Virus record (IMG/VR): IMGVR_UViG_3300025310_000004
Location: 59,759 to 123,758 of that record
Direction: 5' to 3' (one strand)
Length of the DNA stretch: 64,000 bases
Origin: a virus
Taxonomy: Duplodnaviria; Heunggongvirae; Uroviricota; Caudoviricetes
A program made the translations under genes and the position numbers. Shown piece by piece: positions 26,926 through 64,000 of this stretch; the first letter of the stretch is position 1; each line of letters starts with the position of its first letter. A model generated the notes under the pieces. The model ran no database searches. It was not told where the DNA came from and was given only the letters and a program-made list of their open reading frames with translations.

Positions 26926-26931
26926 GATCAT

Positions 26932-27008: not shown

Positions 27009-27009
27009 C

Positions 27010-27083: not shown

Positions 27084-27084
27084 C

Positions 27085-27159: not shown

Positions 27160-27160
27160 C

Positions 27161-27235: not shown

Positions 27236-27236
27236 T

Positions 27237-27308: not shown

Positions 27309-27360
27309 AGCACTAGACATCGTTAGACCTGTTCAGTTGTCTGCCCTCAAGGAGACAGAT

Positions 27361-27995
27361 CATGCGAGTTGAGATTCGCCCCGGTGAAGGGGGTGAGGAC
27401 GCCCAGCGCTTCGCCAAGGAGTGCCTTTGACGCGTTCTGCAAGGCGGCCCGCCGACGTGGGCTTGAGCCAGCAGTCAGCGAGTCCGCTCGCACCATGATC
27501 TTGGAGATCGCCGACATCTCCTTCCTTGAGCCCTTCGTCGGCACCCACCGCGTGCAGCGCATCCCCAAGGGGGAGCAGCGCCGTCACACCTCGACGGCCA
27601 CGGTTGCGATCGTCGGCCAGGTAGACAATGACGACTTCATCCCCGATGAGGAAATCGAGGAGCGGTTCGATCGCGGTGGCGGCAAGGGTGGCCAGCACCA
27701 GAACACCACCGACTCGGCGGTGACCCTCACCCACACCCCCACCGGGATCACGGTCCACATCGAGGGACGCAAGCAGTGGGGCAACCGCCAGGAAGCACGT
27801 CGGGTGCTATCCGAACGGGTAGCAGCCCATCGCCGAGCAGAGGCGTTGCGGATGTGCAACGACCAGCGGCGCGCCCAGATCAACCCGGAGCGCTCCGCCA
27901 AGTCGTTCACCCACAACACTCAGCGCAACGAGGTGGTGGACCACGACTCGGGTCGGTCGTGGCGGCTCACCGAGTTCCATAAGGGCAAGTTCTGA
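27361..27995 (+). CDS. prfH-like: class-I release-factor homologue lacking domain 1 (RF-H/PrfH-like); full length requires +1 frameshift at CUU UGA C
   Basis: Frame A gives MRVEIRPGEGGEDAQRFAKECL then TGA. The +1 frame continues DAFCKAARRRG...HRVQRIP...GGQHQNTTDSAVTLTHTPTGI. AAGGAG sits 3 nt upstream of CTT. Confidence 0.65.
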
Positions 27996-28017
27996 TGTCA
28001 CAGCCATCCGCTATGGT

Positions 28018-28827: not shown

Positions 28828-28987
28828 GGACATCCAGCAGCACCCGCTCCACCGGGTGGTGGTGGGGGCGTTGAAGGACACCATCAACATGCACGGCCCC
28901 ATCACCCCCGAGTGGATCGGGTCTGCCGCCAAGCGGATCACGGCTGCCGTGGTGGCCGAGCAGAAGAAGTCTGCGGAAACCTCTTGA
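28805..28987 (+). CDS. small hypothetical protein
   Basis: 60-aa ORF with a TTG start overlapping the upstream gene. Confidence 0.3.
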   Translation: MSLTTTNEDIQQHPLHRVVVGALKDTINMHGPITPEWIGSAAKRITAAVVAEQKKSAETS

Positions 28988-28991
28988 TCGA

Positions 28992-29013
28992 GTGTCGCAC
29001 CCGTGTGCTAGGG
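28992..29013 (+). promoter_or_regulatory. conserved promoter motif TGTCGCACCCGTGTGCTAGGGT (copy 8)
   Basis: Identical to copy 4. ATG at 29021 of a 33-codon ORF, then the Leu tRNA cluster. Confidence 0.5.
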
Positions 29014-29158
29014 TCGTAGACATGTACCGATTGCTCCCCCTCCTACGGCCACTCAAGGCCAAGCCTGGGCATCAGCGCCCGCGCCATGCTGCGCGACCGC
29101 TGAATCCCCAGCAACAGGGGTAGAGCACCTTCTCTCCCCCTGTGGCCTGAGAAGGTCT

Positions 29159-29242
29159 TGCGGGGGTGGCGTAACTGGCAGCCGCGCCGGGTTTAGGTCC
29201 CGGTGGCCGAGAGGTCGTGAGGGTTCGAGTCCCTCCTCCCGC
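29159..29242 (+). tRNA. tRNA-Leu(TAG)
   Basis: Anticodon stem CCGGG/CCCGG. Anticodon loop TTTAGGT. 15-nt variable arm. Confidence 0.65.
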
Positions 29243-29246
29243 ACCG

Positions 29247-29333
29247 AGTGCCCGTGGCGGAACTGGTAGACGCGTTGTCCTCAGAAGGCAATGTCCGCAA
29301 GGGCGTGAGGGTTCGACTCCCTCCGGGCACACC
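29247..29333 (+). tRNA. tRNA-Leu(CAG), CCA encoded
   Basis: Acceptor GTGCCCG/CGGGCAC. Anticodon loop CTCAGAA. Confidence 0.7.
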
Positions 29334-29334
29334 A

Positions 29335-29420
29335 AGTCAGCATGGTGGAATGGTAGACACGCCGTCTTGAGGGGGCGGTGGCCGCAAGGTCGTGAGGGTT
29401 CGACTCCCTCTGCTGACACC
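29335..29420 (+). tRNA. tRNA-Leu(GAG), CCA encoded
   Basis: Acceptor GTCAGCA/TGCTGAC. Anticodon loop TTGAGGG. Confidence 0.7.
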
Positions 29421-29445
29421 AAACGCAAGAAACGCAACAAGATCA

Positions 29446-29527
29446 AGCCCGAGTGGCGGAACTGGCAGACGCGCTCGTCTCAAGAACGAGTGACCTAGGT
29501 CGTGTGGGTTCGACTCCCACCTCGGGC
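29446..29527 (+). tRNA. tRNA-Leu(CAA)
   Basis: Anticodon stem CTCGT/ACGAG. Anticodon loop CTCAAGA. Confidence 0.7.
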
Positions 29528-29560
29528 ACGCAAGGCTCTTTGACAACAGAAGATCACCGA

Positions 29561-29585
29561 TACAACGGGACGGGGTGACGGCTTG
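29561..29585 (+). repeat. duplicated 5' fragment of tRNA-Pro(CGG) (CAACGGGACGGGGTGACGGCTTGG)
   Basis: 24/25 identity with 30021-30045 at the start of the intact tRNA-Pro downstream of the HNH gene. Confidence 0.6.
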
Positions 29586-29600
29586 GATTAGACGGCAACG

Positions 29601-29606
29601 CTATAA
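29601..29606 (+). promoter_or_regulatory. perfect TATAAT -10 box 8 nt upstream of HNH ATG
   Basis: Seen directly. The surrounding sequence has lower GC. Confidence 0.4.
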
Positions 29607-29614
29607 TCTAATCC

Positions 29615-30037
29615 ATGACGATCACCCAGAAGTGCAAGCGCTGCGGAAAGCGGCGTGAACACGGACTCCGACGCAATGGCAGTGCTCAGGCGTACTGCCG
29701 TCAGTGTCAGAGGGAATACAGCAAGAGTCACTACGAAACCAACAAGGGTTCGTACAACGGCAGGAGGTTGAAGCACCAACGGCAGCGACGCCAAGACGGA
29801 TACAAGATCACGAACTCGGCCAAGGATCGCCCTTGCGTCGATTGCGGGGTCAAGTACCCGACCTACGTCATGCAGTTCGATCATCGGGACCCGACGACCA
29901 AGAACTTCACGATTGCCACCCATGTTCGCAATGGTGGCTCCTTGAAGGCGCTGATCGCCGAGATCGAGAAGTGTGACGTGGTTTGTGCGAATTGTCATGC
30001 CGAAAGGACGCATCAACAACGCAACGGGACGGGGTGA
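29615..30037 (+). CDS. HNH homing endonuclease
   Basis: MQFDHRDP and CANCHAERTH HNH motif. The gene has lower GC than its flanks. Confidence 0.8.
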   Translation: MTITQKCKRCGKRREHGLRRNGSAQAYCRQCQREYSKSHYETNKGSYNGRRLKHQRQRRQDGYKITNSAKDRPCVDCGVKYPTYVMQFDHRDPTTKNFTIATHVRNGGSLKALIAEIEKCDVVCANCHAERTHQQRNGTG

Positions 30038-30102
30038 CGGTTTGGTTGCACGCCGCGTTCGGGACGCGGAGGTCGCGGGTTCAAATCCCGCCGTCCCGAC
30101 CA
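30025..30102 (+). tRNA. tRNA-Pro(CGG), CCA encoded
   Basis: Acceptor CGGGACG/CGTCCCG. Anticodon loop TTCGGGA. The 5' end overlaps the HNH stop. Confidence 0.65.
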
Positions 30103-30103
30103 T

Positions 30104-30176
30104 CGGAAGGTGGTGACAAGCGCACAGCGGCCGTTGGGGCCGCAGGACCGGGGGTAGCGTCCCGGCTTTCCGACCA
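30104..30176 (+). pseudogene. cloverleaf tRNA-like with non-canonical loops (T-loop GGTAGCGT, anticodon loop CGTTGGG), CCA encoded
   Basis: Acceptor CGGAAGG/CTTTCCG. All four helices are present. Confidence 0.35.
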
Positions 30177-30177
30177 A

Positions 30178-30249
30178 CGGGTAGGTGCCGGATGGCAAGG
30201 CACTCGGTTTGGGGCCGAGACTAAGGAGGTTCGATTCCTCTCTACCCGA
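30178..30249 (+). tRNA. tRNA-Pro(TGG)
   Basis: Anticodon stem CTCGG/CCGAG. Anticodon loop TTTGGGG. Confidence 0.65.
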
Positions 30250-30254
30250 CTTGA

Positions 30255-30323
30255 TCGATGGTGGCCGCAATTGGTAGCGGTAGCCCGACGGGGTTTGTGC
30301 GGGTTCGAGTCCCGTCCATCGAT
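30255..30323 (+). pseudogene. tRNA-like with canonical acceptor/T-arm but collapsed anticodon arm
   Basis: Acceptor TCGATGG/CCATCGA and T-arm GCGGG-TTCGAGT-CCCGT. Internal CCCGACGGG. Confidence 0.3.
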
Positions 30324-30330
30324 CAACCAT

Positions 30331-30406
30331 TCCGGGGAAGGTTGATGGCATCCTGCCCGCACTCTGAATGCGGACCACGTTGGTTCGATTCCAACCCCCG
30401 GAGCCA
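30331..30406 (+). tRNA. tRNA-Gln(CTG), CCA encoded
   Basis: Anticodon stem CCGCA/TGCGG. Anticodon loop CTCTGAA. Confidence 0.7.
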
Positions 30407-30407
30407 T

Positions 30408-30483
30408 GGTGACCGGAGCCGGATGGAGAGGCGCTTGGTTGTGACCCAAGCAGCAGGGGGTTCGATTCCCCTCGGTCACCCCA
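30408..30483 (+). tRNA. tRNA-His(GTG) with encoded G-1 and C73, CCA encoded
   Basis: G-1 + GTGACCG/CGGTCAC. Anticodon loop TTGTGAC. Confidence 0.7.
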
Positions 30484-30487
30484 TCGA

Positions 30488-30562
30488 TCGGGAGTGGTGT
30501 AACGGCAGCACGCGAGGCTTTGAACCTCGTAGGTGAGGGTTCGAGTCCTTCCTCCCGAGCCA
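30488..30562 (+). tRNA. tRNA-Gln(TTG), CCA encoded
   Basis: Acceptor TCGGGAG/CTCCCGA. Anticodon loop CTTTGAA. Confidence 0.7.
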
Positions 30563-30591
30563 ACGTCACAGCGACATGATACTATAGGAGA

Positions 30592-30744
30592 ATGCTAGGT
30601 AACCGAAAGAACCGAGGTCGCCACGGCGATAGGTACTGCCCCTACGGGTGCTGCCGCAGCCTGGTGACCGGCAAGAAGTCCAAGACCCGCCGCATCTTGC
30701 GGACCCGCGACAAGCGGGCCTGGGTCAAGGACCAGCGCAACTGA
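30592..30744 (+). CDS. small basic Cys-containing protein (50 aa)
   Basis: AGGAG SD. MLGNRKNRGRHGDRYCPYGCCRS... Below the ORF-track cutoff. Confidence 0.3.
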   Translation: MLGNRKNRGRHGDRYCPYGCCRSLVTGKKSKTRRILRTRDKRAWVKDQRN

Positions 30745-30748
30745 TCGT

Positions 30749-30824
30749 TCCGGGGTGGCCGATAGGCAAGGCGGCTCCCTGTTAAGGAGTTTCAATGTGG
30801 GTTCGAGTCCCACCCCCGGAGCCA
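30749..30824 (+). tRNA. tRNA-Asn(GTT), CCA encoded
   Basis: Anticodon loop CTGTTAA. T-arm GTGGG-TTCGAGT-CCCAC. Confidence 0.7.
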
Positions 30825-30825
30825 A

Positions 30826-30900
30826 CCCGAGATGGCGTAGCAGGCAACGCGGCTGGCCGTTAACCAGCAGTGGGGGGTTCAAGTCCTTCTCTCGGGGCCA
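30826..30900 (+). tRNA. tRNA with GTT anticodon and C33 (second Asn-like), CCA encoded
   Basis: Anticodon stem GCTGG/CCAGC. Anticodon loop CCGTTAA. Confidence 0.45.
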
Positions 30901-30901
30901 T

Positions 30902-30979
30902 CCAGGTGTAGCAAACGTTGGCATTGCACCCGCCTCTTAAGCGGACTAAACGTGGGTTCGATTCCCGCCGCCTGGACCA
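30902..30979 (+). tRNA. tRNA-Lys(CTT), CCA encoded
   Basis: Anticodon loop CTCTTAA. T-arm GTGGG-TTCGATT-CCCGC. Confidence 0.6.
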
Positions 30980-30980
30980 A

Positions 30981-31055
30981 CCGCCTCAAGCATTGATGGT
31001 GATGCACCCGACTCTTAATCGGGAGAGCAGGTTTCGAGTACCTGGGGGCGGACCA
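30981..31055 (+). tRNA. tRNA-Lys(CTT) second copy, CCA encoded
   Basis: D-stem GCAT/ATGC. Anticodon stem CCCGA/TCGGG. Anticodon loop CTCTTAA. Confidence 0.6.
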
Positions 31056-31086
31056 TGAGAACGAAACCAACGCCAACTCCAATCTC

Positions 31087-31158
31087 GGGGGTATGGCGTA
31101 GCGGTAGCGCACCGGACTTTTAATCCGAGAGGCCAGGGTTCGATCCCCTGTGCCCCCA
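31087..31158 (+). tRNA. tRNA-Lys(TTT)
   Basis: Acceptor GGGGGTA/TGCCCCC. Anticodon loop CTTTTAA. Confidence 0.6.
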
Positions 31159-31179
31159 CTGCACCCAGGAGGTGACCCA

Positions 31180-33099: not shown

Positions 33100-33790
33100 C
33101 TAGTTCGCAAGACCCCAGACCGCAAGGACGGGGCACTACAACTGAATAGATCGCAGCAGCAGCGTTGCGTAGGAACGGGTTACTTCTCCTGTTAAGAGAG
33201 TGGAGAGGGTTCGACTCCCTCCGGGGCCGCCAACATGGTCCCGTGGTGTAACGGCCAGCACACTAACCGTCACCTGATCCGCCGAGTTCTCGCTGCTGCT
33301 CAATCGCACGACGACGTTGCGAAGCGTTGGGATACTTCCGGTACCACTTTCACCGGGCCTACCTCGTGGTCGAGGACCTGCACTCCGTTGCAGGAAGTGG
33401 GGTTCGATTCCCCGGCTCTCCTCCTGATGCGCCAAGTTCTCGTCGTCGCACCACCTCGGTGGCGATGCGTAGCGTTGGGATACTTCGGTAACACAGGTTC
33501 GACTCCTGTCGGCCAGAGCAATCTGGTTTGGCCCCACTTCGGAGGGGCATCGAGTCCTCGGACTCAACAGCACTCCTGATGCGCCAAGTTCACGCCACCA
33601 AGATGTGGGACGTTGCGAAGGTCCGGGTTACTTCTGGCTTCCAATCAGACCCAACACCTGTACCGACGAGTTCTCGTCCCCTCAACCGCTGGTGGCGGTG
33701 GCGATGCGAAGCCATGGGTTACTTCATCTTGGAACGAACACCTGCGGCGACCAAGTTCACGCCACTGCACCCAGCCCAACCGAAAGGAGC
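33100..33790 (+). ncRNA. tandem array of Y-RNA-like repeats with tRNA-like T-arm modules upstream of Ro60 gene
   Basis: Four to five ~150-bp units share GTTGCG(A/T)AG..GGGTTACTTC and CCTGATGCGCCAAGTTC. T-arms at ~33204, 33397 and 33494. Confidence 0.5.
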
Positions 33791-33796
33791 ACCACC

Positions 33797-35404
33797 ATGG
33801 CCAAGTTCTCGAACACCAAGCCCGCGCCGCGCAAGCGTGCGACGGCCCCGACGAAGGTGACCGGCACCCGCCTCGCTACGCACGAGGGCGGCACCGGCTA
33901 CGCCAAGGACGACAAGACGGCCCTCTACACGCTGGCCGTCACCAACATGGTCGGCGAGCCGACCTTCTACGAGTCCGGCAAGGACCGTGACGACCGCTTC
34001 CGCACCCTGGTGCGGCGCGTGACCACGCAGGACCCCACCTGGGTCGCCGGGTTCATCGGCTTCCTCCGCAACGAGGCCAACATGCGGTCGGCATCGATCG
34101 TCGTGGCTGCCGAGGCGGCCAAGACCCTGCTCGACCTGCGCGCCAAGGGCGTCGAGGTGGACGGCAACGTGCGCTCAATCATCGCTTCGGCGTGCGAACG
34201 TGCCGATGAGCCTGCAGAGATGCTGGGCTACTGGCTCGCCAACTACGGCCGCGCCCTGCCCATGGGCGTCAAGCGCGGCATCGGCGACGCGGCTGTGCGT
34301 CTCTACACCGAGCGCAACGCTCTCAAGTACGACGGCGGAAGCCGTGGCGTGCGGATGGGCGACGTGCTCAACCTGACCCACCCCACCCCTGGTGCGGCCT
34401 GGCAGTCGGACCTGTTCCGCTACCTGCTGGACCGCCGTCACGGGCACGCCGAGGGCGTGGTCCCCGAGACGCTGGCGACCATCCTCGCCGCAACCGACCT
34501 CGACGCGACCCCCGAGGGTCAGCGTCGTGCGCTCCTGCGTGAGCGTGGCCCCGAGGCTCTGGCCGACGCGGGCTACACCTGGGAGCGCCTGAGCGGCTGG
34601 CTGCCCGGCGGCATGGACGCCGAGGCGTGGGAGGCCATCATCCCCTCGATGGGGTATATGGCCCTGCTGCGGAACCTCCGCAACTTCGAGCAGGCCAAGG
34701 TGGAGAAGGCCGTCCTCAAGGGCGTGGCCGACCACCTGGCTGACCCCGAGGCTGTGGCCAAGAGCCGTCAGTTCCCGTACCGCTTCTTCTCGGCGTGGAA
34801 GGCGTCGGGCAGCACCTTCTTCGGTGCTGCGCTTGAAGCGGCGCTGGACGAGTCGGTCAAGAACCTCCCGATCTTCTCGGGGCGCACCCTGGTCGCCATC
34901 GACACCAGCGGCTCGATGCAGTCGCCCGTGTCGGGCCGCAGCCAGGCGCAGTGCTACGAGGTGGGCGCGCTGTTCGGCTCTGCCGTGGCCGCTCGCTCCG
35001 ACTGCGACGTGATCCTCTACGCGGATCGCTGGGACTGGTTCACCCCCGAGGTGTCCGTCCTGCGTTCGGTGGAGAAGGTCCGTCGTCTGATCGGCGAGGT
35101 CGGGTACGGCACCAACACCTGGCCGTCCGTCGCCCAGGCGTTCGCCAACAAGGGCGGCTATGACCGCATCGTGGTCATGACCGACTGCCAGGACCACCCG
35201 GCTCGTGGTGGCCTCTACGGCCACCGCGACACCAGCACGCTGCCGGATGTCCCGATCTACGTCTGGGACCTCCGCGGCTACGAGGCCACCAACATCGACA
35301 ACACGCCGGGGCGCTACCTGTTCGGAGGCTTCTCCGACGCGGCGTTCAAGATGATCGCTCTCATCGAGCGCGGTCAGAACGCCGAGTGGCCCTGGCTCGA
35401 CTGA
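33797..35404 (+). CDS. rsr: Ro60/Rsr orthologue (TROVE domain + vWA domain)
   Basis: N-terminal TROVE-like region and C-terminal vWA MIDAS DTSGSM. GAAAGGAG SD. Confidence 0.75.
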   Translation: MAKFSNTKPAPRKRATAPTKVTGTRLATHEGGTGYAKDDKTALYTLAVTNMVGEPTFYESGKDRDDRFRTLVRRVTTQDPTWVAGFIGFLRNEANMRSASIVVAAEAAKTLLDLRAKGVEVDGNVRSIIASACERADEPAEMLGYWLANYGRALPMGVKRGIGDAAVRLYTERNALKYDGGSRGVRMGDVLNLTHPTPGAAWQSDLFRYLLDRRHGHAEGVVPETLATILAATDLDATPEGQRRALLRERGPEALADAGYTWERLSGWLPGGMDAEAWEAIIPSMGYMALLRNLRNFEQAKVEKAVLKGVADHLADPEAVAKSRQFPYRFFSAWKASGSTFFGAALEAALDESVKNLPIFSGRTLVAIDTSGSMQSPVSGRSQAQCYEVGALFGSAVAARSDCDVILYADRWDWFTPEVSVLRSVEKVRRLIGEVGYGTNTWPSVAQAFANKGGYDRIVVMTDCQDHPARGGLYGHRDTSTLPDVPIYVWDLRGYEATNIDNTPGRYLFGGFSDAAFKMIALIERGQNAEWPWLD

Positions 35405-49367: not shown

Positions 49368-49871
49368 ATGGCTATGTACGAGCGAGTCCTTCTTCTCAAC
49401 GCAACTTACGAGCCGATCTGCGTCGTGTCGCTCAAGCGCGCCGTCGTGCTGGTCCTCGCCGAGAAGGCCGAGGTCGTCTCTGCACGCGACCGCGAGGTGC
49501 GCTCGGCCTCGTTCGTCCTAGATGCACCCTCGGTCATCCGCCTGGTGCGCTACGTCAACGTGCCGCGCTTCCGCAAGGCGTATCTGAGTCGTCGCACCAT
49601 CCTGCAGCGCGACAACCACGAGTGCTGCTACTGCGGCAAGCGCGCTACCACGATGGACCACATCATGCCCCGTAGCCGCGGCGGCCAGCACTCGTGGACC
49701 AACGTGGTTGCCTGCTGCTTCGACTGCAACCAGGCCAAGGACAACAAGACCCCCGAGGAGATGGGCTGGAAGATGCGGTACCAGCCCTTCGAGCCCGAGG
49801 GCAACCGTCGCATCGTGCTGATCGTTGGTCACCTCGACCCCGCGTGGGAGGAGTGGGTCGCGGTAGCCTGA
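49368..49871 (+). CDS. HNH endonuclease
   Basis: CCYCGK...DHIMPRSRGG...CCFDCNQAK. Confidence 0.75.
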   Translation: MAMYERVLLLNATYEPICVVSLKRAVVLVLAEKAEVVSARDREVRSASFVLDAPSVIRLVRYVNVPRFRKAYLSRRTILQRDNHECCYCGKRATTMDHIMPRSRGGQHSWTNVVACCFDCNQAKDNKTPEEMGWKMRYQPFEPEGNRRIVLIVGHLDPAWEEWVAVA

Positions 49872-53666: not shown

Positions 53667-56600
53667 ATGGCGAACGTCGTCGGCTCAGCCACAATCCGCA
53701 TCATCCCTGACACTTCGGGATTCAGCGCGGCTCTGCGCGGCCAACTCAACACCCTGACGAGCCAGGTCGGCGCCATGGGTGGCCGGAACATCACCGGCAA
53801 CCTATCAACCCAACTCAACACGCTGGGCACGAGCCTAGACCGGACTGGCACCAGGGCAGCCCTCGTCGGACAGGCGTTCACCTACGGCCTGACTCGGCCA
53901 CTCATCCGTGCTGGCGAGGCCATCATCGGAGTGGCTGCCGACTTCGATGAAGCGGCCCGGACCGTGGCCGCCGTCACCATCCCCGACCCCATCGAGGGTG
54001 TCTTTGAGTCGATGGACATGTTCGAGGGACGCGTCCAGCAATACAAGGACTCGGCTCGCGAGATGGCGCGCGAAACGGTGTTCTCCTCGACCGAGGTCGA
54101 GAAGGCATACGTTGACTTGGCTCGTGCCGGTCTGACGAGCGCCGATCAACTCGAATCAGTCATCGGGACCGTCGCCAACGTGGCTCTGGTCGAGGGTGGC
54201 TCGATGGCCGATTTCAGCGACAAACTCGTCCAAATCTTCACCGGCTTCGGCGGCAACTTCGAGGAGGTCGGCGAGCAGTACGAAACCATCTTCGGTGATG
54301 TCCGAGCCACCACGGCCGATCTGACTGCTGAGTTCGAGCACATGGGCGACATCCTGGCCCTGACCTCGCAGCGCACCGTCACCGACATCACCGACCTGGC
54401 CGTGGCCTTCCGTTACGCCGGTCCCACCGCCAAGGCCGCTGGCTTGTCCTTCGAGGAGACGGCCGCCGGTCTTGGCCTGCTTGCTCAGGCGGGTTTCAGC
54501 GCCAGCATGGGCGGCACGGCCCTTCGTGGCATCATCACCCGTCTAGCCATCCCAACGAAGTTGAGTGAGGAAATCTTCGAGAAGTTCGGGATGACCATGG
54601 AGCAGGCGTTCCAACCTGAGAACGCAGCCAGGTTGCAGGACACCCTGCACTCCATGGGCGTGGCGCAAGAGGAAATCGATGAGATCATGGCTGGTGGCGC
54701 CCAGGGCTTCAGGGAGGCCCAGGACGCGATCGCCGAATATGGATTCGAGGTGTTCGACGCCGCTGGCAACATGAGGCCACTCGTTGACATCGTTGAGGAG
54801 TTCGTTGACAAGGGCGCCCGCGTTGGTGACATCAGCAAGGTGTTCGGTCAACGCGCTGGTCCCGCCTTCCAGGGCCTCATGGACAACTTGCCAGCCCTGC
54901 AGCGCTTGACCGTCGAACTCGACGGCGCCGAGGGCGCTCTCGACCGTATGGCCGAGCGGATGAAAACGTCTGCGTCGGTTCAGTTCAAGTTGCTCAAGAA
55001 CTCCTTGATCGAGTTGGCCATCGCCTTCGGTGAGTCTGGCGTGCTCAAGTTCTTCTCCGACTTGGCAGCCGATCTTCGCGACTTCGCTCTGGGGCTGGCT
55101 GACACCAATCCCCAGATTCTCAAGATCGTTGGGGCTGTGGCTGCCCTTGTCGCGGCCATCGGACCTGTCGGCCTCGTCTTTGGGCTGTGGACTCAGGGCC
55201 TTGGCAAGTTCATCCAGTTTCTTGGCTTCGTCGTGAGTGGGCCAATCGGGGCCTTCGTGGCGGCCATGACCGTCATTGGGGCCACCATCGGGTTCCTGAT
55301 CTCAAGGTCGGAGGCCCTCGGGACAGCCTTCGGCGCTCTTTTCGACTCCATTATGACGGTGGTCGGACCTATCGCCGAACAATTCGGTCGCTTCATCGCA
55401 GGGGTCGTTGGGGGTATTGGCAAACTTGCCGAGATGCTTGGCAACTACCTAGCACCAGCAGTTGCGGATACAGCGGACAAGATCAACGATTGGGTGGAGG
55501 GCGGCGGCCTATTCAAGTTCCTATCCGACTCGATCAATTGGGTGGGCGACCTAGCGAACAAGGTGTTTGACCTTTGGCAGCAGTTCAAGTTGGCTGGCGG
55601 TCTTGAGACAGTTGAGAACGGTCTCAGCGCGGTCAGGGAGGCCGCTGATCGCCTTGTCGCTATTTTCATTGATCTCTGGGATGCGTCACAACCCATCTTC
55701 ACCAATCTTCTCCCCGCTCTCAGAGATGTAGGGAGTGCCCTAGCGACTACTGTCGGCGCCGCCTTTGTTGTTGCCTGGAATGCGGCTTCTGGATTTCTCA
55801 GCGCCATTGAACTGCTTGTTGACGTGCTCAAGCCCGTGCTGGGATTCTTGGGCGACAACCTGACCAACGTCCTTCAAATCTTGGTCATGTGGTTCCTACG
55901 GACACGTTCAAGCATCGACCAAGCGGTCATTGGGTTTGGACGCCTAGGGCAAGCGGCTGATAGGTCCCTAGGCATGTTCGGGAACTTCTTTGGGGGGGCC
56001 GCTCAACGAGTCGATGGGTTCACCCTGAGGGTTTCGGACGCAGTAGCGCGTGTGTCTGTAGCCCTGACGACGATGAGCGCGAGCGCCTCGGTGGCCGCCG
56101 GTAGGTTTAGTGCGGCCATTTTCAGGATGGGGGATCGCGCCGGGTCCATCCTTAGAGGGTTGTCGAGAGGGTTCCAGACCTTCGCCAATGTGACCAAGAA
56201 TGTGATGGCAAACTCCTCAGCCATTCTTTCTGGGTTCTTCGCTGGCCAGATGGCAGCACAGGCAACCACCTTCAAGGATAAGATCGTCTCGCTGGGAACA
56301 GTATTCGTTTCGATGGCTACATCTATCGCCATGCTTCCCGGCCCCGCCGGATTGGCGTTGGCCGTCCTCACAGGCATCGCTGCCATCATGGGGAACCTGC
56401 TGGGAAAGGCCGAGGAATGGGACGCCCTCACCTTCGACATGGGCGGGAGCATCCGAACCCTTTCCGCTGAGTTCGAGAAGATGGGCACTACGGACATGCC
56501 CATTGGCCAGACTCTCGATGCCTTCAATGACCAACTTGAAGGCATGGACCCGCGCAATGTTGCCATCATGAAGAACAACATCGAGGAGTTGGGGTTCTCG

Positions 56601-59600
56601 ATGACGGACCTCGGTGAAGCCTTCATGGGCGGCGAAGAAGAAGTCGCCAAGTTCGTTGACACGTTGGGCCAGACCTTCGCTGATCAGGTCATGGCCGGGA
56701 CCATTGAGTCGGAGAGGTTTGGAATCACCGTTCGACGTTCATTCGGGATGGGCGACAGGGGGCCAGAAGAATACGCCACGGCCTGGGGGGACATTGCCAC
56801 GGAGATTGGCAAGGCCGGTGACGAACTGTTCTACGTCACCGTTAACGGCGAGAAGGTGGGGGAAGGGTTCACTGACGCGGCCGGTGCCGCTACGCGACTC
56901 AAGGAAATCTTCGACAAGGACTTCTTGGGTCAAGCCGTCAGAGACTTCGGGACCGCTATCGACGCCGCTCGTGACAAGTTCGATGCCACTCGGACCATCC
57001 AGCGATTGGTGATGGCCGAACAGACCGACCTCAACGAACGGGCCAAGGGGTGGAGCACCCGCATTGAGGAAGCCAATTCTGGCCTAGACCGAGCACGCAG
57101 CAAGATCGCCAATCTGTTCAAGGGTCCAGACGATCCGGCTGAGGCCACGGCGAGACTTTTCGAGTCAATCGATCAGAGCATCGCAAGCCTCATGATCGAC
57201 GGCAACCTCATGCTCACGCCCCCGGACCCCACGTCCCCTCAGGCCGGGGCTTGGTACGACTCCATGGAGCAAATCACGGGTAATGCCCAGCAAGTCCTTG
57301 CGGGCATTGCACTTGAAATCCCCCCCGTTGCCCCACCCGAGATCAAGCGTGCCGAGTTCGAGCGGCGCTTCGGCGAGATGCGGGCCATCTACATGAGCGC
57401 TCTGCAGCGGCCCGTTGCCGAGGGCGGTCGAGGCATGACTCAGACTCAGGCCAACGAGTTCCTCAACACGATCATGCCGATGCCGTCCGAGGAGCAGATC
57501 ACCGCGTGGCTGGGCGATCAGGACATCGTGGCTGCACAAATCCCAGATTTGGCTCGCATTTTCAACCTTCCAGCCAGCGGGGAACGCATCGATGCGTTCG
57601 TCAACATCCAGAGCATGATTACCGGGCCTCTTGACCCCAACGCCCAGGGCGACCTGGCGTCGGTGTTGCGTACCGGCAACATCGACGTACTCGCTCGCAT
57701 CAACTTGGCCTTGGAGGAGGGCGTAGGACTCCCAGCGGGGATGACCTCTGCCACCCTTGCCAACCTGTTGGCCACCGGTCAGTTGGGTATCAGCCAGTAC
57801 GATGCCTTTATCAATGTTTGGCCAAGTGTGAATGGCCTTGAATCGCTCTCCGAGCAGCAGCGATCCATCATCACGGCTGCCTTTGCTCGTGGAAATGTCA
57901 CGGACACGCAGCAGATCAATTCCTATTTGAGCGTGTTCCAGAACCCACTTCCACCAGGGTTGACCTACGACATGCTCACAGCGCTCCTTGGGTTTGATGT
58001 GATTGAACCCAAGCAGTTGACTGCCTATGTCAACCTCCTTGGTGGCGCTCTCCCCACGGGATGGAATGCAGAGAAAATCAACCAACTGCTCACCACCGGC
58101 AACATGAGCCTTGGCCAAGTTGAAGTCTTTCTGAGAGTGATCCCAGAAATCCCGGTAATCGCAGGACTTGACCCAGCCCAGGTGCAGGACTTGGTGCAGA
58201 AGATGGCAGGTAGCGGGGCTACTCAGCAGCAGATCAACGCGACCCTGAACATCATCTCAGGCGACCCGGCCAAGTTCGCTGAAATCCAGTCGATCTTGAA
58301 CGCCGGGCTTAACCCCGTAAAGATTCCGGTCTACTTCGATGTGCAGAATGCCAACCCGAACATGACTCCCCAGCAGATCGTCGAGTTGATCAACTTTGCC
58401 GCTGGGTTCAACTTCGCTGAGGGCGGCATCGTCACTTCGGAAACCTTCGCTCGCATCGGCGAGGATGGCCCCGAGGTGGTCATCCCGCTGACGAAGCCCG
58501 ATCGTGCTGCCTCACTCATGGCCGACTCTGGCCTGTATCAGTTCGCGTTCAAGACGGCCATGGCTGGTGGGGTTCCACCCGGCATCATCAACATCGCCAA
58601 TGCAACCCCCTACTCGGGGTTCGTGATCGACCCCAACGCCCTCCCGGCCCCTGCTGCCGTTGGCGGCGGTGGCCCCGTCAGCATGACGCTGCCCGGAGCC
58701 ACCGTCAGCGGAGCAGTGCCCCCCGTGACGGACGTGTTGGTGAACGTCGTCTTGGTGCTGGTTGGGGCGGAATTGGTACTGGCAACCTTCTCGGCGATCG
58801 TCAACTCTGCTCTGGCTATGGCCGGGACGATTGGGTCGGCCTTCGCCATCATGAACATCCAGACGATCGAATCGCTGCAGGGCGTCATGGGAACCCTGTT
58901 GCAGATCATCTCCATCACCCCCGCCCTCTTGGAAATGGTTGCCACCATCGGGGCGGGCTTCACTTCTATGGCATTTGTAGTGGTGACTGCGATTACGGCC
59001 ATCGTCCAGGCTTTGTCCCTCATCCCTATTGTCATGGCATCGGTTGGAGAGTCCATCGCCCGTGGCTTCTCTCGCCCCTTCAATCTCATCGCTTCGTCGG
59101 TGTGGAACCCCTTCGCCTCCTTCATCAACTCCGCAGCCACGGCTCTCGGCCTTGGTCCACTTCTCCCCACGGGTCTTTCCATCCCCGTGTTCCACAAGGG
59201 TGGCATCGTTGGCGACGCCACCGGGGATTCCTACGACGGATCGCGCAGCACCACCCAGGACGAGGTGTTCGCCCTTCTGCAGAAGGGCGAGGGCGTCATG
59301 TCCAAGCAGATGATGGCGAACATGACGGCTGCACAGATCAGCGCCTTCAAGAAGGGCGAGAAGCGTTGGTGGGCAGTTGGCGGTCCCTACGAGTCCGGCA
59401 AGGGCCAGGCCGGGACGCGGATCGATTCTGGGTACGCCTACAACTCGCCGGACATCCCGAACTTCGAGCAGACCAAGGCGTTCTACGAGGGCACCATCAA
59501 GCCGCTCATCGGATCGGTGACGACCGCCTACCCAGGCAACCTGGCCGCCAACATTGGCGGGACCTCGATGAGCCGTCTGGGCGACGCTGCCGTGGAATAC

Positions 59601-60377
59601 ACCCGCGGTTACACCGATCGGATGACCGAGGAGCAGCAGAAGTACCTCGTGCAGATCGGGCTTCCGCCGGACTTCGACATCGACGGCGCCCTCCCGGCTG
59701 GATTCGACCTTGCTGAGTGGCGCTCGTTCCTGGGGGCCAACAAGAAGCCTGGGAGTTGGCCGTTCATCGCCGCCTACCTGAATGCTGCCGGGATTCCCTT
59801 CCTGACCAACTCGACGCTACGTCCCGGTGATGTCGGCTCTTACCACGCCTCGGGTCGCGCCATCGACCTCGGTGCCCCTGGTGACGCCAACTACGACTCG
59901 CCCGGACTTCTTCGCATCAACCATGCCCTGGCCCCCCTGCTGGGCGTGCTGGCCGAGTTGATCTACTCCGGCCCCGGCGGCATCAGTGACAAGGCATACG
60001 ACGCCGGGACGATGGCGCAACACCACAACCACGTCCACGCCGCCCTGCGCGATGGCGGGATCGTTCAGGACCTCGTGTACGCCATGCTTGGCGAGGACGG
60101 CCCCGAGGTGGTCATCCCGCTGAACGACCCCAACCGCGCTCTGAGCCTGGCTCGTCGCTCGGGACTGCTGCGCACGCTGCAGGGCGCCCAGAACCGTTCC
60201 ACCTCCTACTCGCCCCCCTCGGCCGTATCGGACGCCCGGAGTGCCACCACAGGTGGCGACGACGACGGAATCCTGGGCGGCGCCGGCAACACCTACCACA
60301 TCCACGGCATCTCCTGGGACCAGGCCCGCAAGAAGATCGAGAACAGGGATCGGGCGGCCCTTCGCCGCCGCCGCTAG
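53667..60377 (+). CDS. tape measure protein
   Basis: 2236 aa with helical/Ala-rich repeats and TM segments. Duplicated motif GGIV..FARIGEDGPEVVIPL. C-terminal zinc-peptidase-like H..D...HNHVH. Confidence 0.9.
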   Translation: MANVVGSATIRIIPDTSGFSAALRGQLNTLTSQVGAMGGRNITGNLSTQLNTLGTSLDRTGTRAALVGQAFTYGLTRPLIRAGEAIIGVAADFDEAARTVAAVTIPDPIEGVFESMDMFEGRVQQYKDSAREMARETVFSSTEVEKAYVDLARAGLTSADQLESVIGTVANVALVEGGSMADFSDKLVQIFTGFGGNFEEVGEQYETIFGDVRATTADLTAEFEHMGDILALTSQRTVTDITDLAVAFRYAGPTAKAAGLSFEETAAGLGLLAQAGFSASMGGTALRGIITRLAIPTKLSEEIFEKFGMTMEQAFQPENAARLQDTLHSMGVAQEEIDEIMAGGAQGFREAQDAIAEYGFEVFDAAGNMRPLVDIVEEFVDKGARVGDISKVFGQRAGPAFQGLMDNLPALQRLTVELDGAEGALDRMAERMKTSASVQFKLLKNSLIELAIAFGESGVLKFFSDLAADLRDFALGLADTNPQILKIVGAVAALVAAIGPVGLVFGLWTQGLGKFIQFLGFVVSGPIGAFVAAMTVIGATIGFLISRSEALGTAFGALFDSIMTVVGPIAEQFGRFIAGVVGGIGKLAEMLGNYLAPAVADTADKINDWVEGGGLFKFLSDSINWVGDLANKVFDLWQQFKLAGGLETVENGLSAVREAADRLVAIFIDLWDASQPIFTNLLPALRDVGSALATTVGAAFVVAWNAASGFLSAIELLVDVLKPVLGFLGDNLTNVLQILVMWFLRTRSSIDQAVIGFGRLGQAADRSLGMFGNFFGGAAQRVDGFTLRVSDAVARVSVALTTMSASASVAAGRFSAAIFRMGDRAGSILRGLSRGFQTFANVTKNVMANSSAILSGFFAGQMAAQATTFKDKIVSLGTVFVSMATSIAMLPGPAGLALAVLTGIAAIMGNLLGKAEEWDALTFDMGGSIRTLSAEFEKMGTTDMPIGQTLDAFNDQLEGMDPRNVAIMKNNIEELGFSMTDLGEAFMGGEEEVAKFVDTLGQTFADQVMAGTIESERFGITVRRSFGMGDRGPEEYATAWGDIATEIGKAGDELFYVTVNGEKVGEGFTDAAGAATRLKEIFDKDFLGQAVRDFGTAIDAARDKFDATRTIQRLVMAEQTDLNERAKGWSTRIEEANSGLDRARSKIANLFKGPDDPAEATARLFESIDQSIASLMIDGNLMLTPPDPTSPQAGAWYDSMEQITGNAQQVLAGIALEIPPVAPPEIKRAEFERRFGEMRAIYMSALQRPVAEGGRGMTQTQANEFLNTIMPMPSEEQITAWLGDQDIVAAQIPDLARIFNLPASGERIDAFVNIQSMITGPLDPNAQGDLASVLRTGNIDVLARINLALEEGVGLPAGMTSATLANLLATGQLGISQYDAFINVWPSVNGLESLSEQQRSIITAAFARGNVTDTQQINSYLSVFQNPLPPGLTYDMLTALLGFDVIEPKQLTAYVNLLGGALPTGWNAEKINQLLTTGNMSLGQVEVFLRVIPEIPVIAGLDPAQVQDLVQKMAGSGATQQQINATLNIISGDPAKFAEIQSILNAGLNPVKIPVYFDVQNANPNMTPQQIVELINFAAGFNFAEGGIVTSETFARIGEDGPEVVIPLTKPDRAASLMADSGLYQFAFKTAMAGGVPPGIINIANATPYSGFVIDPNALPAPAAVGGGGPVSMTLPGATVSGAVPPVTDVLVNVVLVLVGAELVLATFSAIVNSALAMAGTIGSAFAIMNIQTIESLQGVMGTLLQIISITPALLEMVATIGAGFTSMAFVVVTAITAIVQALSLIPIVMASVGESIARGFSRPFNLIASSVWNPFASFINSAATALGLGPLLPTGLSIPVFHKGGIVGDATGDSYDGSRSTTQDEVFALLQKGEGVMSKQMMANMTAAQISAFKKGEKRWWAVGGPYESGKGQAGTRIDSGYAYNSPDIPNFEQTKAFYEGTIKPLIGSVTTAYPGNLAANIGGTSMSRLGDAAVEYTRGYTDRMTEEQQKYLVQIGLPPDFDIDGALPAGFDLAEWRSFLGANKKPGSWPFIAAYLNAAGIPFLTNSTLRPGDVGSYHASGRAIDLGAPGDANYDSPGLLRINHALAPLLGVLAELIYSGPGGISDKAYDAGTMAQHHNHVHAALRDGGIVQDLVYAMLGEDGPEVVIPLNDPNRALSLARRSGLLRTLQGAQNRSTSYSPPSAVSDARSATTGGDDDGILGGAGNTYHIHGISWDQARKKIENRDRAALRRRR

Positions 60378-60458: not shown

Positions 60459-63400
60459 GTGTATTCAGGGTACCTCTACTTCAACTCCACCGAGATCGCC
60501 AACAACCAACGCGTCGTCGCGTACCTGAACGGCAACCCGTCCCTGGGAATCCCTGGCCTCAAGAGCCCGAACCTCTCGGTGTCTCCGTCCTGTGGGTGTG
60601 ACGCACTGTGCCTCTATTGTGACCAGGGCTCCGGGGAGGGCGGTGCCTTCGTTTCTCCGAAGTTGGATGACGCCCCCTGGTACGACCCAGACGTGCCAGA
60701 TTCGGAGTCCTTCGCTGGATTCTTCATCGAGGACATCACCGGGTTCGACTCGGTAGTGAGGCGCGATTTCTCTGATGGGGCGATCTCGGGCGGATCGCTT
60801 GGGCCACTTCGCCTGTCGGGTCGCTGCATGACCGTCACCGGATGGCTGATGGCCTCCACTTGCTGTGGCGCTGAGTACGGGTTGCGCTGGCTGCAGGAAG
60901 CGCTCATGGGCAACGTGTGCGATGAGTGCGCCTACGGCGATCTCTACATGATCAAGTGCTGCCCCCCCGAGGGGGACACCTGCCACACGGTAGAAGTCGG
61001 CGCGACGGACACGGTGCCAGACACCACCGTCCCCTTCTCGGTCACCAACAACGCCGACGGCACCTACACCTTCTTCATCGATGATGCCCTGCAGGCAAAC
61101 CTGATCTCCGATCCAGACGGGCTCATCAACAACACCGATGGACCGATCCCCGCCTGCTATGGGGCCGGGAACACCTTCCGCTTCGTCCTGGCGGATGACC
61201 TGGGGGCCATCTTCACCTTCCTCATCCCGTTCGAGGCCATCACGTCTGCCGTCACTTCACCGTCGGGTAACGGGGCCGACATGACCTTCGTTGTTGACAC
61301 CAACGTCGTGGGTTCTTGTGATGACGTGGTTCGCAGCATCGAGAAGTTCACCACCCAGGTGACCGAGTACCTCTCCACCTACTCCTCAGCCGAGTTGGTC
61401 GATCTCACGTCGCCGACGCAGGTGCGGTGCTTCGAGACGCGTGAGGGCTACAACCCAGACGACTACGTTCGTCTCCTCCATCGCGTTGGCCTCACCGAAG
61501 GTCCGACGGTCTTGGAGCGCCTCGGCACTTGCTGTGAGTCCAACTGCGGATGCGTCTACCTCAAGGTGGAGTTCACGCTGTGCTCGGAGTCTCCCTACAT
61601 CTTCTCCGACATCGATTGGTGCATCGAGGGCGAAACCTTCGACTTCGATGAGTGCTACTGCCTCGACACCCGCAGGCTGTGCAACATCTGCTCCACTCAG
61701 GACGCGACCAAGTTCGTTGAGCGTGAGACGCGGCGTCCCAACTGCCCGATCACGTTGAGGTACGACCAGACGTGGTGTCCTGAGCAGTGGCCGGATGGGG
61801 TTGAGGACTGCCCTCCGGTTGACTGCCTTCTGACCATCGGAAGCCTTGAGGAGTTCGAGCCGGAGGACAACTCCGAGACGACCACTGGAACGGCAACGGG
61901 TGAGAACACCCTGTTGGTCAACCTCAATGCCGACTTCACTTGGTCGCCTATTGGCTTCAACCCCGAGGATGGGTTCCCGCCCGACTTTGCCGATCTCTAC
62001 CTGTTCAACGGCGGCAACTGCTGGCAGCCCTTCGAGAATCCCTACAGCGTCGATGGCGGCACTAGCGATTGCGACTACTTCGTAACGCTTGGGCCTCCTG
62101 GCTCCTACACATGGTCGCCGTTCTTGTGGAACCCGGTTGCCACCGGATTCCCACCCGAGCCATGCGCCATCTCGATCGTGCCAAGCCTGTGCGAGTGCCC
62201 CACCACTTCGCCTCGCCCCGAGCCGCCCGACACTGATCCCCCAACGCCTGACCCGGTGATCGATTGCGGTGGGGGCATCTGGTACAACCCCGAGGACTGC
62301 ACGCGTGGGTGCGACCCGTGCGGAGCCTGCAACACCTGCAAGCCAGACTGTGGCACCGATGGTGAGCCCATCAGGGCTCCGATCAGGTTGATCTGGAACA
62401 AGGCCAACAACACCTATCGGTTCGAGATTCTCACCTTCGTCACTGGTGCTGGCGGTGTCACCGGCTACGGCAACATCGACTGCTTCGAGATCACCGAGTA
62501 CGTCGTTGAGGGAGTGAAGCCCTGTTTGGTTCGCCTGATCTACGACGAGGGAACCAAGTCTCAAACGTGGGAACCCATTCGTTGGTCTGGATCGCTGCCA
62601 GCCCCATCGGACTGCGATTGCATCCAGATCGCTGAGATCGTTGTCAACAAGACGGAAACGCTTGATTGCGTTGATGCCACGGACTGCCCGATCAACGTGC
62701 AGTGCGATGTCGAGTGGCGTCCCGAGGACTGCACCACCCGTCAGGCCATGTGCGCGTTCTTCTACCGCCTCAACGGATCACCACCGTTCGTCCCTCCGAC
62801 TACTCCGACCTTCTCCGACGTTCCCACCAGCAACGCCTTCTACACCGAGATCGAGTGGGCCTATGCCCAGGGGCTCACTGATGGCTTCGGGGATGGAACG
62901 TTCCGTCCCGAGAACTCGGTGTCTCGTCAGGCGGCGGCTGCCTTCTTCTATCGCGACGCTGGTGAACCGGCCTTCACCCTCCCCTACAACCAGACCTTCT
63001 CCGACGTTGACCCGACCCACCCCTTCTACACCGAGATCGAGTGGGTGGCGGATCAGTGCATCTTCTTCGGGTATGGCGACGGGACCTACCGCCCTGAGGA
63101 CTGCCTGACGCGTCGCTCGGCCGCCATCACCATCTACCGATACGGTGGCGGAAAGCCTTCGTACTCTGACGTTGACCAGACCCACCCGTTCTTCAATGAG
63201 ATCGAGTGGGCTCGCGACCAGCGCATCTTCTGTGGGTACGGGGATGGCACTTTCCAGCCTGGGAACGATCTGTCGCGCCGGATCGCTGCGGTCAACTTCT
63301 ACCGCGATGCAGGGGAGCCTGCGTTCGTTCCTCCTGGCGTCCCGACCTTCTTGGATGTCCCCACCACCGATCCTCAGTACCTTGAGATCGAGTGGGCCTA

Positions 63401-64000
63401 TGCCCAGAACATCTTCGATGGTTTCCCTGGTCCGAACTTCCAGCCTGACGCCGACCTGTCGCGCCAGGCCGCAGCCGCAGCGTTCTATCGCTACAACGGG
63501 TCACCAGCCTTCGTTCCCCCTGGCGTTCCCACCTACACGGATGTCCCCCTGATCCACCCCTTCTATCTTGAGATCGAGTGGTGCACCTTCGCATCCATCA
63601 TGTTCGGCTTCGGCGATGGCACGTTCCGACCCACCGATCCGACCACGCGTCAGTCGATGGCTACCTTCTTCTACCGCAATGCTGGCAGCCCTCCCTACGC
63701 TCCTGTTGTCTACACCCCGACGCTGCCTCCCCACTTCTTCGATGTGCCTGAAACCGATCCTCAGTTCCAGCAGATCGAGTGGATGTACGACCAGGGGATC
63801 GGGTTCGGCTTCGTGGCATCGAAGTCCTGGCAGCCCATTGGTTGGGCTCTCGATCCCGATGCGGCCTTCCCTCCCGAGAACTGCAACCTCTACATCGCCA
63901 CGATCAACGGCGAGGAACCGGACACCAGCCCTATCAAGGAGTTGGTGGAGGTTCCATGGGATGAGTTCGTTCCCGACTGTGGGCCGTTCCCATCCGCCCC
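60459..64000 (+). CDS. minor tail protein with six C-terminal SLH-like repeats (3' partial)
   Basis: No stop from the GTG at 60459 to the window end. Repeats F.DV....PFY.EIEW...Q.I..GYGDGTFRP....SR..AA..FYR begin at ~62790. Confidence 0.6.
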   Translation, partial: MYSGYLYFNSTEIANNQRVVAYLNGNPSLGIPGLKSPNLSVSPSCGCDALCLYCDQGSGEGGAFVSPKLDDAPWYDPDVPDSESFAGFFIEDITGFDSVVRRDFSDGAISGGSLGPLRLSGRCMTVTGWLMASTCCGAEYGLRWLQEALMGNVCDECAYGDLYMIKCCPPEGDTCHTVEVGATDTVPDTTVPFSVTNNADGTYTFFIDDALQANLISDPDGLINNTDGPIPACYGAGNTFRFVLADDLGAIFTFLIPFEAITSAVTSPSGNGADMTFVVDTNVVGSCDDVVRSIEKFTTQVTEYLSTYSSAELVDLTSPTQVRCFETREGYNPDDYVRLLHRVGLTEGPTVLERLGTCCESNCGCVYLKVEFTLCSESPYIFSDIDWCIEGETFDFDECYCLDTRRLCNICSTQDATKFVERETRRPNCPITLRYDQTWCPEQWPDGVEDCPPVDCLLTIGSLEEFEPEDNSETTTGTATGENTLLVNLNADFTWSPIGFNPEDGFPPDFADLYLFNGGNCWQPFENPYSVDGGTSDCDYFVTLGPPGSYTWSPFLWNPVATGFPPEPCAISIVPSLCECPTTSPRPEPPDTDPPTPDPVIDCGGGIWYNPEDCTRGCDPCGACNTCKPDCGTDGEPIRAPIRLIWNKANNTYRFEILTFVTGAGGVTGYGNIDCFEITEYVVEGVKPCLVRLIYDEGTKSQTWEPIRWSGSLPAPSDCDCIQIAEIVVNKTETLDCVDATDCPINVQCDVEWRPEDCTTRQAMCAFFYRLNGSPPFVPPTTPTFSDVPTSNAFYTEIEWAYAQGLTDGFGDGTFRPENSVSRQAAAAFFYRDAGEPAFTLPYNQTFSDVDPTHPFYTEIEWVADQCIFFGYGDGTYRPEDCLTRRSAAITIYRYGGGKPSYSDVDQTHPFFNEIEWARDQRIFCGYGDGTFQPGNDLSRRIAAVNFYRDAGEPAFVPPGVPTFLDVPTTDPQYLEIEWAYAQNIFDGFPGPNFQPDADLSRQAAAAAFYRYNGSPAFVPPGVPTYTDVPLIHPFYLEIEWCTFASIMFGFGDGTFRPTDPTTRQSMATFFYRNAGSPPYAPVVYTPTLPPHFFDVPETDPQFQQIEWMYDQGIGFGFVASKSWQPIGWALDPDAAFPPENCNLYIATINGEEPDTSPIKELVEVPWDEFVPDCGPFPSA

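Follow-up and report, generated by a model that had tools for sequence, protein, structure and literature searches.

We report that a gene of an uncultured tailed virus (Caudoviricetes) encodes a tail protein into which an array of S-layer-homology (SLH) motifs has been inserted. The gene lies in a stretch of 64,000 nucleotides (nt) of IMG/VR record IMGVR_UViG_3300025310_000004 (positions 59,759 to 123,758; hereafter the window), directly after the gene for the tape measure protein, and its product is, on the strength of a structural model, an "evolved" distal tail protein (Dit) whose conserved core has the Dit fold. Judged from the sequence, the SLH array forms a circularly permuted cassette inside an insertion of this Dit, and so is internal and not a C-terminal appendage. 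Taken as a whole, the data are probably best explained by an evolved Dit that carries a permuted SLH sextet as a wall-binding adsorption module.

The SLH-bearing gene starts with a GTG at position 60459 (+ strand), 82 bases past the stop of an upstream open reading frame (ORF) of 2236 amino acids (aa), and its frame is still open at the end of the window. The full gene was found on a 79.8-kb Logan contig (SRR5581334, L002:16793-20839), where it was called independently with the same GTG. The full protein has 1348 aa and its stop codon falls at window-equivalent position 64505, 168 residues past the window end; protein P0001, encoded on a 171-kb JGI contig, is identical to it. ORFs on the opposite strand over the region were set aside as ordinary high-GC artefacts. 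In the ORF list, the 2236-aa frame directly upstream occupies 53667..60377 (+ strand), and a match to PF10145 PhageMin_Tail (E=3.4e-33) identifies it as the tape measure. By the rule of thumb of about 0.15 nm of tail length per tape measure residue, its size predicts a tail of roughly 330 nm.

The first-pass annotation had read the repeats of this protein as SLH motifs, and the Pfam check bears this out. For the SLH family (PF00395) the score is 165.6 bits (E=2.2e-49) where the gathering cut-off is 20.8, with five significant stretches of which the best is aa 784-827, and the outcome is the same on the full-length protein. The repeat unit of 55-67 aa lies on the + strand in the frame that opens at 60459, recurs as direct DNA repeats with periods of 186/165/186/186/201 nt, and its copies within the window protein are 44-56% identical to each other. 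We scored the units and set their boundaries with a hidden Markov model (HMM) built from the phage motifs, in which the five full units reach 87-105 bits each (Table 1). Neither the window nor the 6 kb downstream contains a second ORF with SLH motifs, such as an endolysin, according to this repeat HMM. With a profile of the cassette, matches extend to SLH proteins of known structure, namely D. radiodurans SlpA (7ZGX, E=4e-6), OmpM (8BZ2 and 8BYM) and B. anthracis Sap (3PYW/6BT4), the SLH trimer of the last aligning over motifs R3-R5. These proteins were reached by the profile only, a phmmer search of the cassette against PDB sequences giving nothing at E<=1e-3.

The boundaries given by the repeat HMM redraw the array. 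It spans 62706-63812, not 62790-64000 as had been annotated. The recurring unit is real, but the six repeats counted earlier are five full motifs and one motif split into two halves. The cassette of 369 aa is out of register with the Pfam motif, as the second half of a motif comes first, five full motifs follow and the first half of a motif comes last. The array had also been placed at the C-terminus; the window, however, ends inside the gene, and the full-length ORF continues for 230 residues past the last SLH element, so that the array is internal (aa 750-1118 of 1348). What had been taken for the end of a sixth repeat, the segment SKSWQPIGWALDPDAAFPPENC... from 63813 onwards, is conserved in homologs without any SLH motif and therefore belongs to the scaffold.

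We aligned 16 relatives and measured the stretch between the conserved DCPINVxC and W.PIGW motifs. This stretch is 14-27 aa long in the seven proteins without SLH motifs, 201-202 aa in the three-motif proteins P0010 and P0011, and 384-385 aa in the six-motif proteins P0001-P0006 and P0008, which corresponds to an insert of about 187 aa or about 371 aa and hence to three or six units of some 62 aa each. All 11 family members with SLH have either three or six motifs, P0007 and P0009 being further three-motif members, which matches the rule that three SLH motifs make up one binding unit (PMC6081394). The half-motifs at the boundaries are homologous between the three- and six-motif versions, and these versions therefore differ by the internal gain or loss of exactly three units. 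At the syntenic locus of a related 158-kb phage contig there is an SLH-less homolog. The point at which the cassette is inserted looks like a hairpin turn, at whose base, we infer, the two end halves meet to complete the sixth motif. Domain insertion requires that the two ends of the inserted domain lie close to each other, and such pairing would achieve this. The six motifs would presumably fold as two three-pronged SLH pseudo-trimers.

Comparison of orthologs indicates that the cassette is under purifying selection and that the six-motif array is old and maintained, not a decaying relic. In the closest ortholog pair the ratio of nonsynonymous to synonymous substitution rates (dN/dS) of the cassette is 0.157 at a dS of 0.73, a value like that of the flanks, other segments having ratios of 0.08-0.25. 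Each motif position is conserved in its own right, with an identity of 59-69% when orthologs are compared at the same position and of 44-53% when different positions are compared. The GC content of the cassette and its GC content at third codon positions (GC3) match those of the flanks, as does dS; this rules out a recent horizontal acquisition and means that the cassette has long been resident in the lineage.

That the carrier is a tail protein, as the first-pass annotation had it, was upheld by its place directly after the tape measure gene, by an N-terminus resembling annotated minor tail proteins of actinophages and by the Dit fold of its core. The N-terminal 175 aa match phrog_838 (positions 2-178), and in tblastn searches the N-terminus matches annotated minor tail proteins of Streptomyces, Saccharomonospora, Microbacterium, Gordonia and Arthrobacter phages. 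BLASTP against gp29 of Streptomyces phage TurkishDelight (474 aa, encoded 3' of the tape measure gene) gave three collinear blocks, at aa 4-171 (41% identity, E=7e-32), 343-393 and 1178-1325 (E=1e-11) of the window protein. The order tape measure then Dit is the same in TurkishDelight, in Terij and in the related contig L005. Minimal metagenomic homologs of 438-444 aa (P0121, P0122, P0123 and P0125) consist of only these three core blocks. The homolog P0121, which lacks the insertions, was modelled with AlphaFold2 on a family alignment of 36 sequences; the model reached a mean predicted local distance difference test score (pLDDT) of 81.6 and a predicted template modelling score (pTM) of 0.74. 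In a Foldseek search with this model SPP1 Dit came first (E=1.5e-8), and the top 13 matches were all SPP1 Dit chains or chains of phage or monocin tail-tip and baseplate assemblies. The model has the two-domain fold of Dit proteins, an N-terminal beta-sandwich with a helix and a C-terminal beta-sandwich, so that, as modelled, the conserved core (aa 1-172, 332-412 and 1164-1348) is that of an evolved Dit. An exhaustive HMMER search found 1535 representatives of this family at E<=1e-3, mostly of 400-470 aa; of three word-indexed searches made earlier, two had performed poorly, with 22 proteins for a profile of SLH-less members and 6 for an N-terminal profile. The protein is unusually rich in cysteine (67 Cys in 1348 aa, 5%). 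Throughout the family many of its CC and CxxC pairs do not vary, and some of these lie in the N-terminal domain (TCCGAEYGL, KCCPP); this suggests that these cysteines may form disulfides or metal sites in the virion protein.

Core and insertions were mapped by alignment to P0121 (Table 1). Both insertions fall between the N- and C-terminal domains of Dit, the first at P0121 residues 175/178 and the second at 256/257, in a low-confidence loop of the model. Insertion B extends over aa 413-1163 and contains the hairpin that hosts the SLH cassette. The relative P0010, which has three SLH motifs, carries in the same protein a CBM_5_12 domain (chitin-binding type) that, read against the alignment, is placed in insertion B in another loop than the SLH cassette. 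Two kinds of wall- or glycan-binding module thus appear to be combined in one tail protein, which fits a wall-binding platform. We also considered whether this scaffold carries many different known carbohydrate-binding modules; this idea was rejected, as Pfam searches of ten long family members recognised no inserted domain besides except for one weak fn3 match.

Table 1. Predicted domains of the Dit gene and SLH elements of the cassette, in window coordinates.
Feature	Position	Strand	Evidence and remarks
Dit N-terminal domain, aa 1-172	60459..60974	+	phrog_838; TurkishDelight gp29; P0121 residues 1-175
Insertion A, aa 173-331	60975..61451	+	Absent from minimal 441-474 aa homologs; without family match
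Dit middle core segment, aa 332-412	61452..61694	+	Aligns to P0121 178-256 and TurkishDelight gp29 175-245
Insertion B, proximal part, aa 413-749	61695..62705	+	23 Cys; in SLH-less homologs of 770-1033 aa, not in minimal ones
Leading half SLH motif (DVEWRPEDCTTRQAMCAFFYR...)	62706..62810	+	Second helix with TTRQ, then FFYR and Pro-rich linker; HMM positions 28-62, 43.5 bits
SLH motif R1	62811..62996	+	Repeat HMM 99.7 bits; Gly29 and Arg43 present
SLH motif R2	62997..63161	+	55 aa, short linker; repeat HMM 87.0 bits
SLH motif R3	63162..63347	+	Repeat HMM 102.9 bits
SLH motif R4	63348..63533	+	Repeat HMM 105.5 bits
SLH motif R5	63534..63734	+	Long Pro-rich linker; repeat HMM 98.9 bits
Trailing half SLH motif (FFDVPETDPQFQQIEWMYDQGIGFGF)	63735..63812	+	First helix, EW, GIGFG, Gly29; HMM positions 1-27, 24.5 bits
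Insertion B, return segment (SKSWQPIGW...)	63813..63947	+	Not SLH; kept in SLH-less homologs
Dit C-terminal domain, start (aa 1164-1348, runs past window)	63948..64000	+	P0121 257-441; TurkishDelight gp29 311-454

We then compared the ligand-site residues of the motifs, using the PROSITE-based SLH numbering of Blackler et al. 2018 (PMC6081394). In Paenibacillus alvei SpaA, which binds a pyruvylated N-acetylmannosamine (ManNAc) monosaccharide with an affinity of 26 nM, Gly29 and Arg43 contact the pyruvate carboxylate and Trp13 stacks on the sugar (PMC6081394). In the window protein Gly29, a residue that is near-universal in SLH motifs, is present in 6/6 first halves and Arg43 in 6/6 second halves, the latter within (S/T)R(Q/R)x in R1-R5 and TTRQ in the leading half. 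Across seven orthologs the only exceptions at Gly29 are R3 of P0002 and R5 of P0008, a mis-anchored row for R3 of P0003 having been set aside. The spacing from GIIxG to TRAE is exactly conserved.

The subtype of these motifs was compared with that of cellular proteins in a scan of one genome per species, seeded with two narrow peptide patterns of the cassette, which returned nine loci. The best match was a 598-aa ORF of Rothia aeria (AP017895, L006:1750-3546) that has three C-terminal SLH motifs and directly follows an ORF for a subtilisin-like peptidase; its best segment is 57% identical to the cassette (E=1e-47). Phage and Rothia motifs have in common the signature F.DVP...(F/Y)Y.EI.W....GI..GY.DGTFRP....R.A.AAFFYR..GSP.F.PP. 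Scored with the phage repeat HMM, for which the phage's own full motifs give 87-105 bits, the three Rothia motifs reach 83, 91 and 56 bits, other SLH-bearing metagenome proteins (P0028-P0120, without taxon label) 16-48 bits per motif, and motifs from Chloroflexia, Acidobacteriota, Verrucomicrobia, Syntrophothermus and uncultured Actinomycetes 9-38 bits per motif. The nearest phage relatives are Streptomyces, Saccharomonospora and Microbacterium phages. Together, the Rothia-like scores and the actinophage relatives point to an actinobacterial host, and this host probably uses the same SLH subtype to anchor surface proteins of its own. SLH domains are reported to be common among Actinobacteria, a group in which pyruvylated wall polymers are also known, Promicromonospora and Nocardiopsis being examples (PMC6801904). 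When the gene was compared by Megablast with 50,697 phage records, it gave no match. In tblastn against the same records the N-terminal matches were recovered, together with four unannotated fecal contigs matching the SLH part, and the SLH region matched no phage with a named host. The best of these contigs, MT835650.1 (L021, 34-3195; 'Bacteriophage sp.', human faeces), encodes an Amidase_2 protein with SLH motifs, and its neighbours are genes for a polysaccharide pyruvyl transferase and an acyl-CoA oxidase. The contig looks cellular, an SLH protein beside a CsaB-like gene being a classic pair.

From the conservation of Gly29 and Arg43, the motif numbers in multiples of three, the presence or absence of the cassette among related phages and the purifying selection on it, we may reasonably infer, by analogy with cellular anchors, that the SLH array would act as an adsorption device binding a pyruvylated wall polymer. 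SLH trimers bind peptidoglycan-linked polymers non-covalently (PMC6081394), and Dit forms a hexamer at the tail tip, with tube, Dit and hub in a 6:6:3 ratio (PMC13252515). A hexameric Dit ring would display about 36 SLH motifs (12 pseudo-trimers) at the tip of each virion. Like their cellular counterparts, these motifs would bind the peptidoglycan-linked secondary cell-wall polymer of the host, most likely in a pyruvylated form. Trimer binding combined with the hexameric arrangement would make adsorption multivalent and reversible, and may keep the tip attached to the wall until the hub proteins act.

Several results weigh against this reading. The Dit fold was modelled on P0121, which is about 51% identical over the shared core, and not on the window protein. 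For the core, Pfam reported no Sipho_tail match, SLH being the sole family at E<=10 in the window protein and its homologs, and a PDB sequence search with the Dit core found no match; with neither a Pfam Dit family nor a PDB sequence to match the core, gene position and fold are the grounds for calling it a Dit. An AlphaFold2 prediction of the cassette with its flanks from seven orthologs had a pLDDT of 44 and recovered only two helices per motif. The Rothia match shows the subtype and not the host, as the scan used only two narrow patterns. Finally, Trp13 is replaced by Pro or Ala in every motif and aromatic residues (Phe/Tyr) stand at positions 14/15 instead, next to an invariant Trp at position 20; the Rothia aeria SLH motifs have the same pattern at positions 13/14/15/20. 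Because Trp13 is replaced, the ligand or the binding geometry may differ, and the ligand is the main uncertainty.

This last point bears on an alternative in which the cassette binds the host wall through a pocket that differs from the 4,6-pyruvylated ManNAc type, its ligand being another wall glycopolymer or peptidoglycan. Besides the displaced aromatics, the pyruvylated epitopes reported in Actinobacteria are not ManNAc-based (PMC6801904), and OmpM-type SLH domains are among the solved relatives that the cassette profile matched. The two residues that contact pyruvate (PMC6081394) are, however, kept in all six motifs, and we regard a ligand of this other kind as possible but rather doubtful.

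A purely architectural role has also to be weighed, with the pseudo-trimers serving as protein-protein joints that brace a collar or cage at the tail tip and bind no host ligand. Insertions in mycobacteriophage Dits often dock accessory baseplate proteins (PMC13252515), and a scaffold with 67 cysteines suggests a rigid structural assembly. Related phages nonetheless have no cassette at this hairpin in tail modules that are otherwise syntenic, which fits an accessory host-range module better than something structurally indispensable, and the ligand-contact residues Gly29 and Arg43 are conserved. We know of no established role of SLH motifs as protein-protein joints, and judge an architectural function decidedly unlikely.

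Two further proposals start from the similarity of the cassette to cellular anchors. In one, the cassette competes with SLH-anchored surface proteins of the host for the wall polymer, displaces the S-layer or other SLH proteins locally and so opens a path for the tail. The phage motifs are indeed nearly as similar to a cellular actinobacterial SLH anchor (83-91 bits) as to each other (87-105 bits), and the local valency would be high, with 36 motifs per tip. The proposal is purely speculative and plain adhesion explains the same data, which makes such competition highly improbable. A broader version, in which an anchor copied from the host and present in about 36 copies both adheres and out-competes host SLH proteins, stripping the surface layer, while the split motif acts as a clasp for a host-range switch between 0, 3 and 6 motifs in trimer steps, also seems unlikely to us. 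The favoured explanation remains an evolved Dit whose SLH sextet would mediate adsorption to the wall.

Carbohydrate-binding Dit insertions and Dit hexamers are established for siphophages (PMC13252515; PMC7533335), and evolved Dits are a kind of protein known from phages of Gram-positive hosts. The protein resembles the evolved Dits of lactococcal, Streptococcus thermophilus and Lactobacillus siphophages in that the gene follows the tape measure, a Dit core carries inserted modules with a likely wall-binding role, and these modules vary among related phages, here as 0, 3 or 6 SLH motifs at one hairpin. It differs from them in that the module is an SLH array, is nested in another insertion and is circularly permuted, and in that the scaffold is cysteine-rich and 1348 aa long, compared with about 240-670 aa for the Dit and tail-tip chains matched by Foldseek. 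In lactococcal evolved Dits the insertion site is a loop of the C-terminal galectin-like domain. The insertion topology here appears closest not to the lactococcal one but to that of mycobacteriophage Corndog, whose Dit, gp58, has a domain inserted between domains I and III, that is, a module between the N- and C-terminal Dit domains (PMC13252515).

With the SLH trimers of B. anthracis Sap (3PYW/6BT4) and Paenibacillus alvei SpaA (6CWI), the cassette shares the Pfam SLH family, Gly29 and Arg43, their spacing and the multiples of three. Those trimers are normally terminal and contiguous, with three motifs in a cell-surface protein, whereas the phage array is internal, split and permuted, has six motifs without Trp13 and belongs to a virion protein. 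The Rothia aeria motifs differ likewise, as a contiguous C-terminal triplet against a permuted sextet inside a tail protein. Among phage proteins, an SLH wall-binding endolysin, LysBT1, is known from a Brevibacillus thermoruber prophage (PMC12285257), and PHROGs contains a few SLH-like phage families, one of which, phrog_670, is matched weakly by the window protein. SLH endolysins (LysBT1 and members of phrog_670) are also phage-encoded proteins that use SLH motifs to find the host wall. Their motifs are C-terminal and act from within at lysis, whereas SLH motifs at the tail tip would act at adsorption. We found no description in the literature of SLH motifs in a phage tail protein. What is new is the permuted, nested and triplet-quantised SLH cassette in a Dit, both modules being already known.

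Other features of the tail region were recorded along with the Dit gene. The tape measure of the related contig L005 has 2245 aa. The gene 3' of Dit (L002:20841-21956, window-equivalent 64507-65622) encodes 372 aa, which is short for a tail hub or Tal protein, and its product matches phrog_837 'minor tail protein' only in the C-terminal part, at positions 368-670 of 681. Further along, inside the tail-gene module and outside the window, lies a gene for a 257-aa PAS-domain protein (L002:25054-25824, window-equivalent 68720-69490), which is conserved in position in the related phage contig without SLH (L005:14543-15361); a sensor-type PAS domain is unexpected among tail genes. Between the head and tail modules, surrounded by structural genes, is an HNH endonuclease ORF (167 aa, window 49368-49871).

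Elsewhere in the window, ARAGORN identified 37 tRNA genes in a + strand cluster at 17932-31159, of which 30 were confirmed by Rfam at the gathering score. The cluster covers most amino acids, often with several isoacceptors; by phage standards the set is very large, in keeping with a genome of 171 kb or more. Just downstream of it, a 599-aa ORF (33605-35404) combines a TROVE domain (E=9e-15) with a Ro60 vWA domain and encodes a Ro60-like protein, near which no Y RNA was found with Rfam at the gathering threshold. A 1229-aa ORF (11543-15232) has a domain of the 2'-5' RNA ligase superfamily near its N-terminus (PF13563, E=8e-8), and the 1042-aa ORF upstream of it (8418-11546) gave no family match.

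If the proposed reading is true, large uncultured actinophage-like viruses would, as a whole group, use as their receptor the wall polymer that anchors the surface proteins of their hosts, which provides a concrete receptor hypothesis for phages without a cultured host, and SLH would join the modules used by evolved Dits. The series of 0, 3 and 6 motifs at one hairpin illustrates how a normally terminal three-motif domain can be permuted for insertion into a loop. The cassette may be of use in probing actinobacterial walls for SLH ligands, and hosts might be predicted with a matching SLH subtype as the marker.

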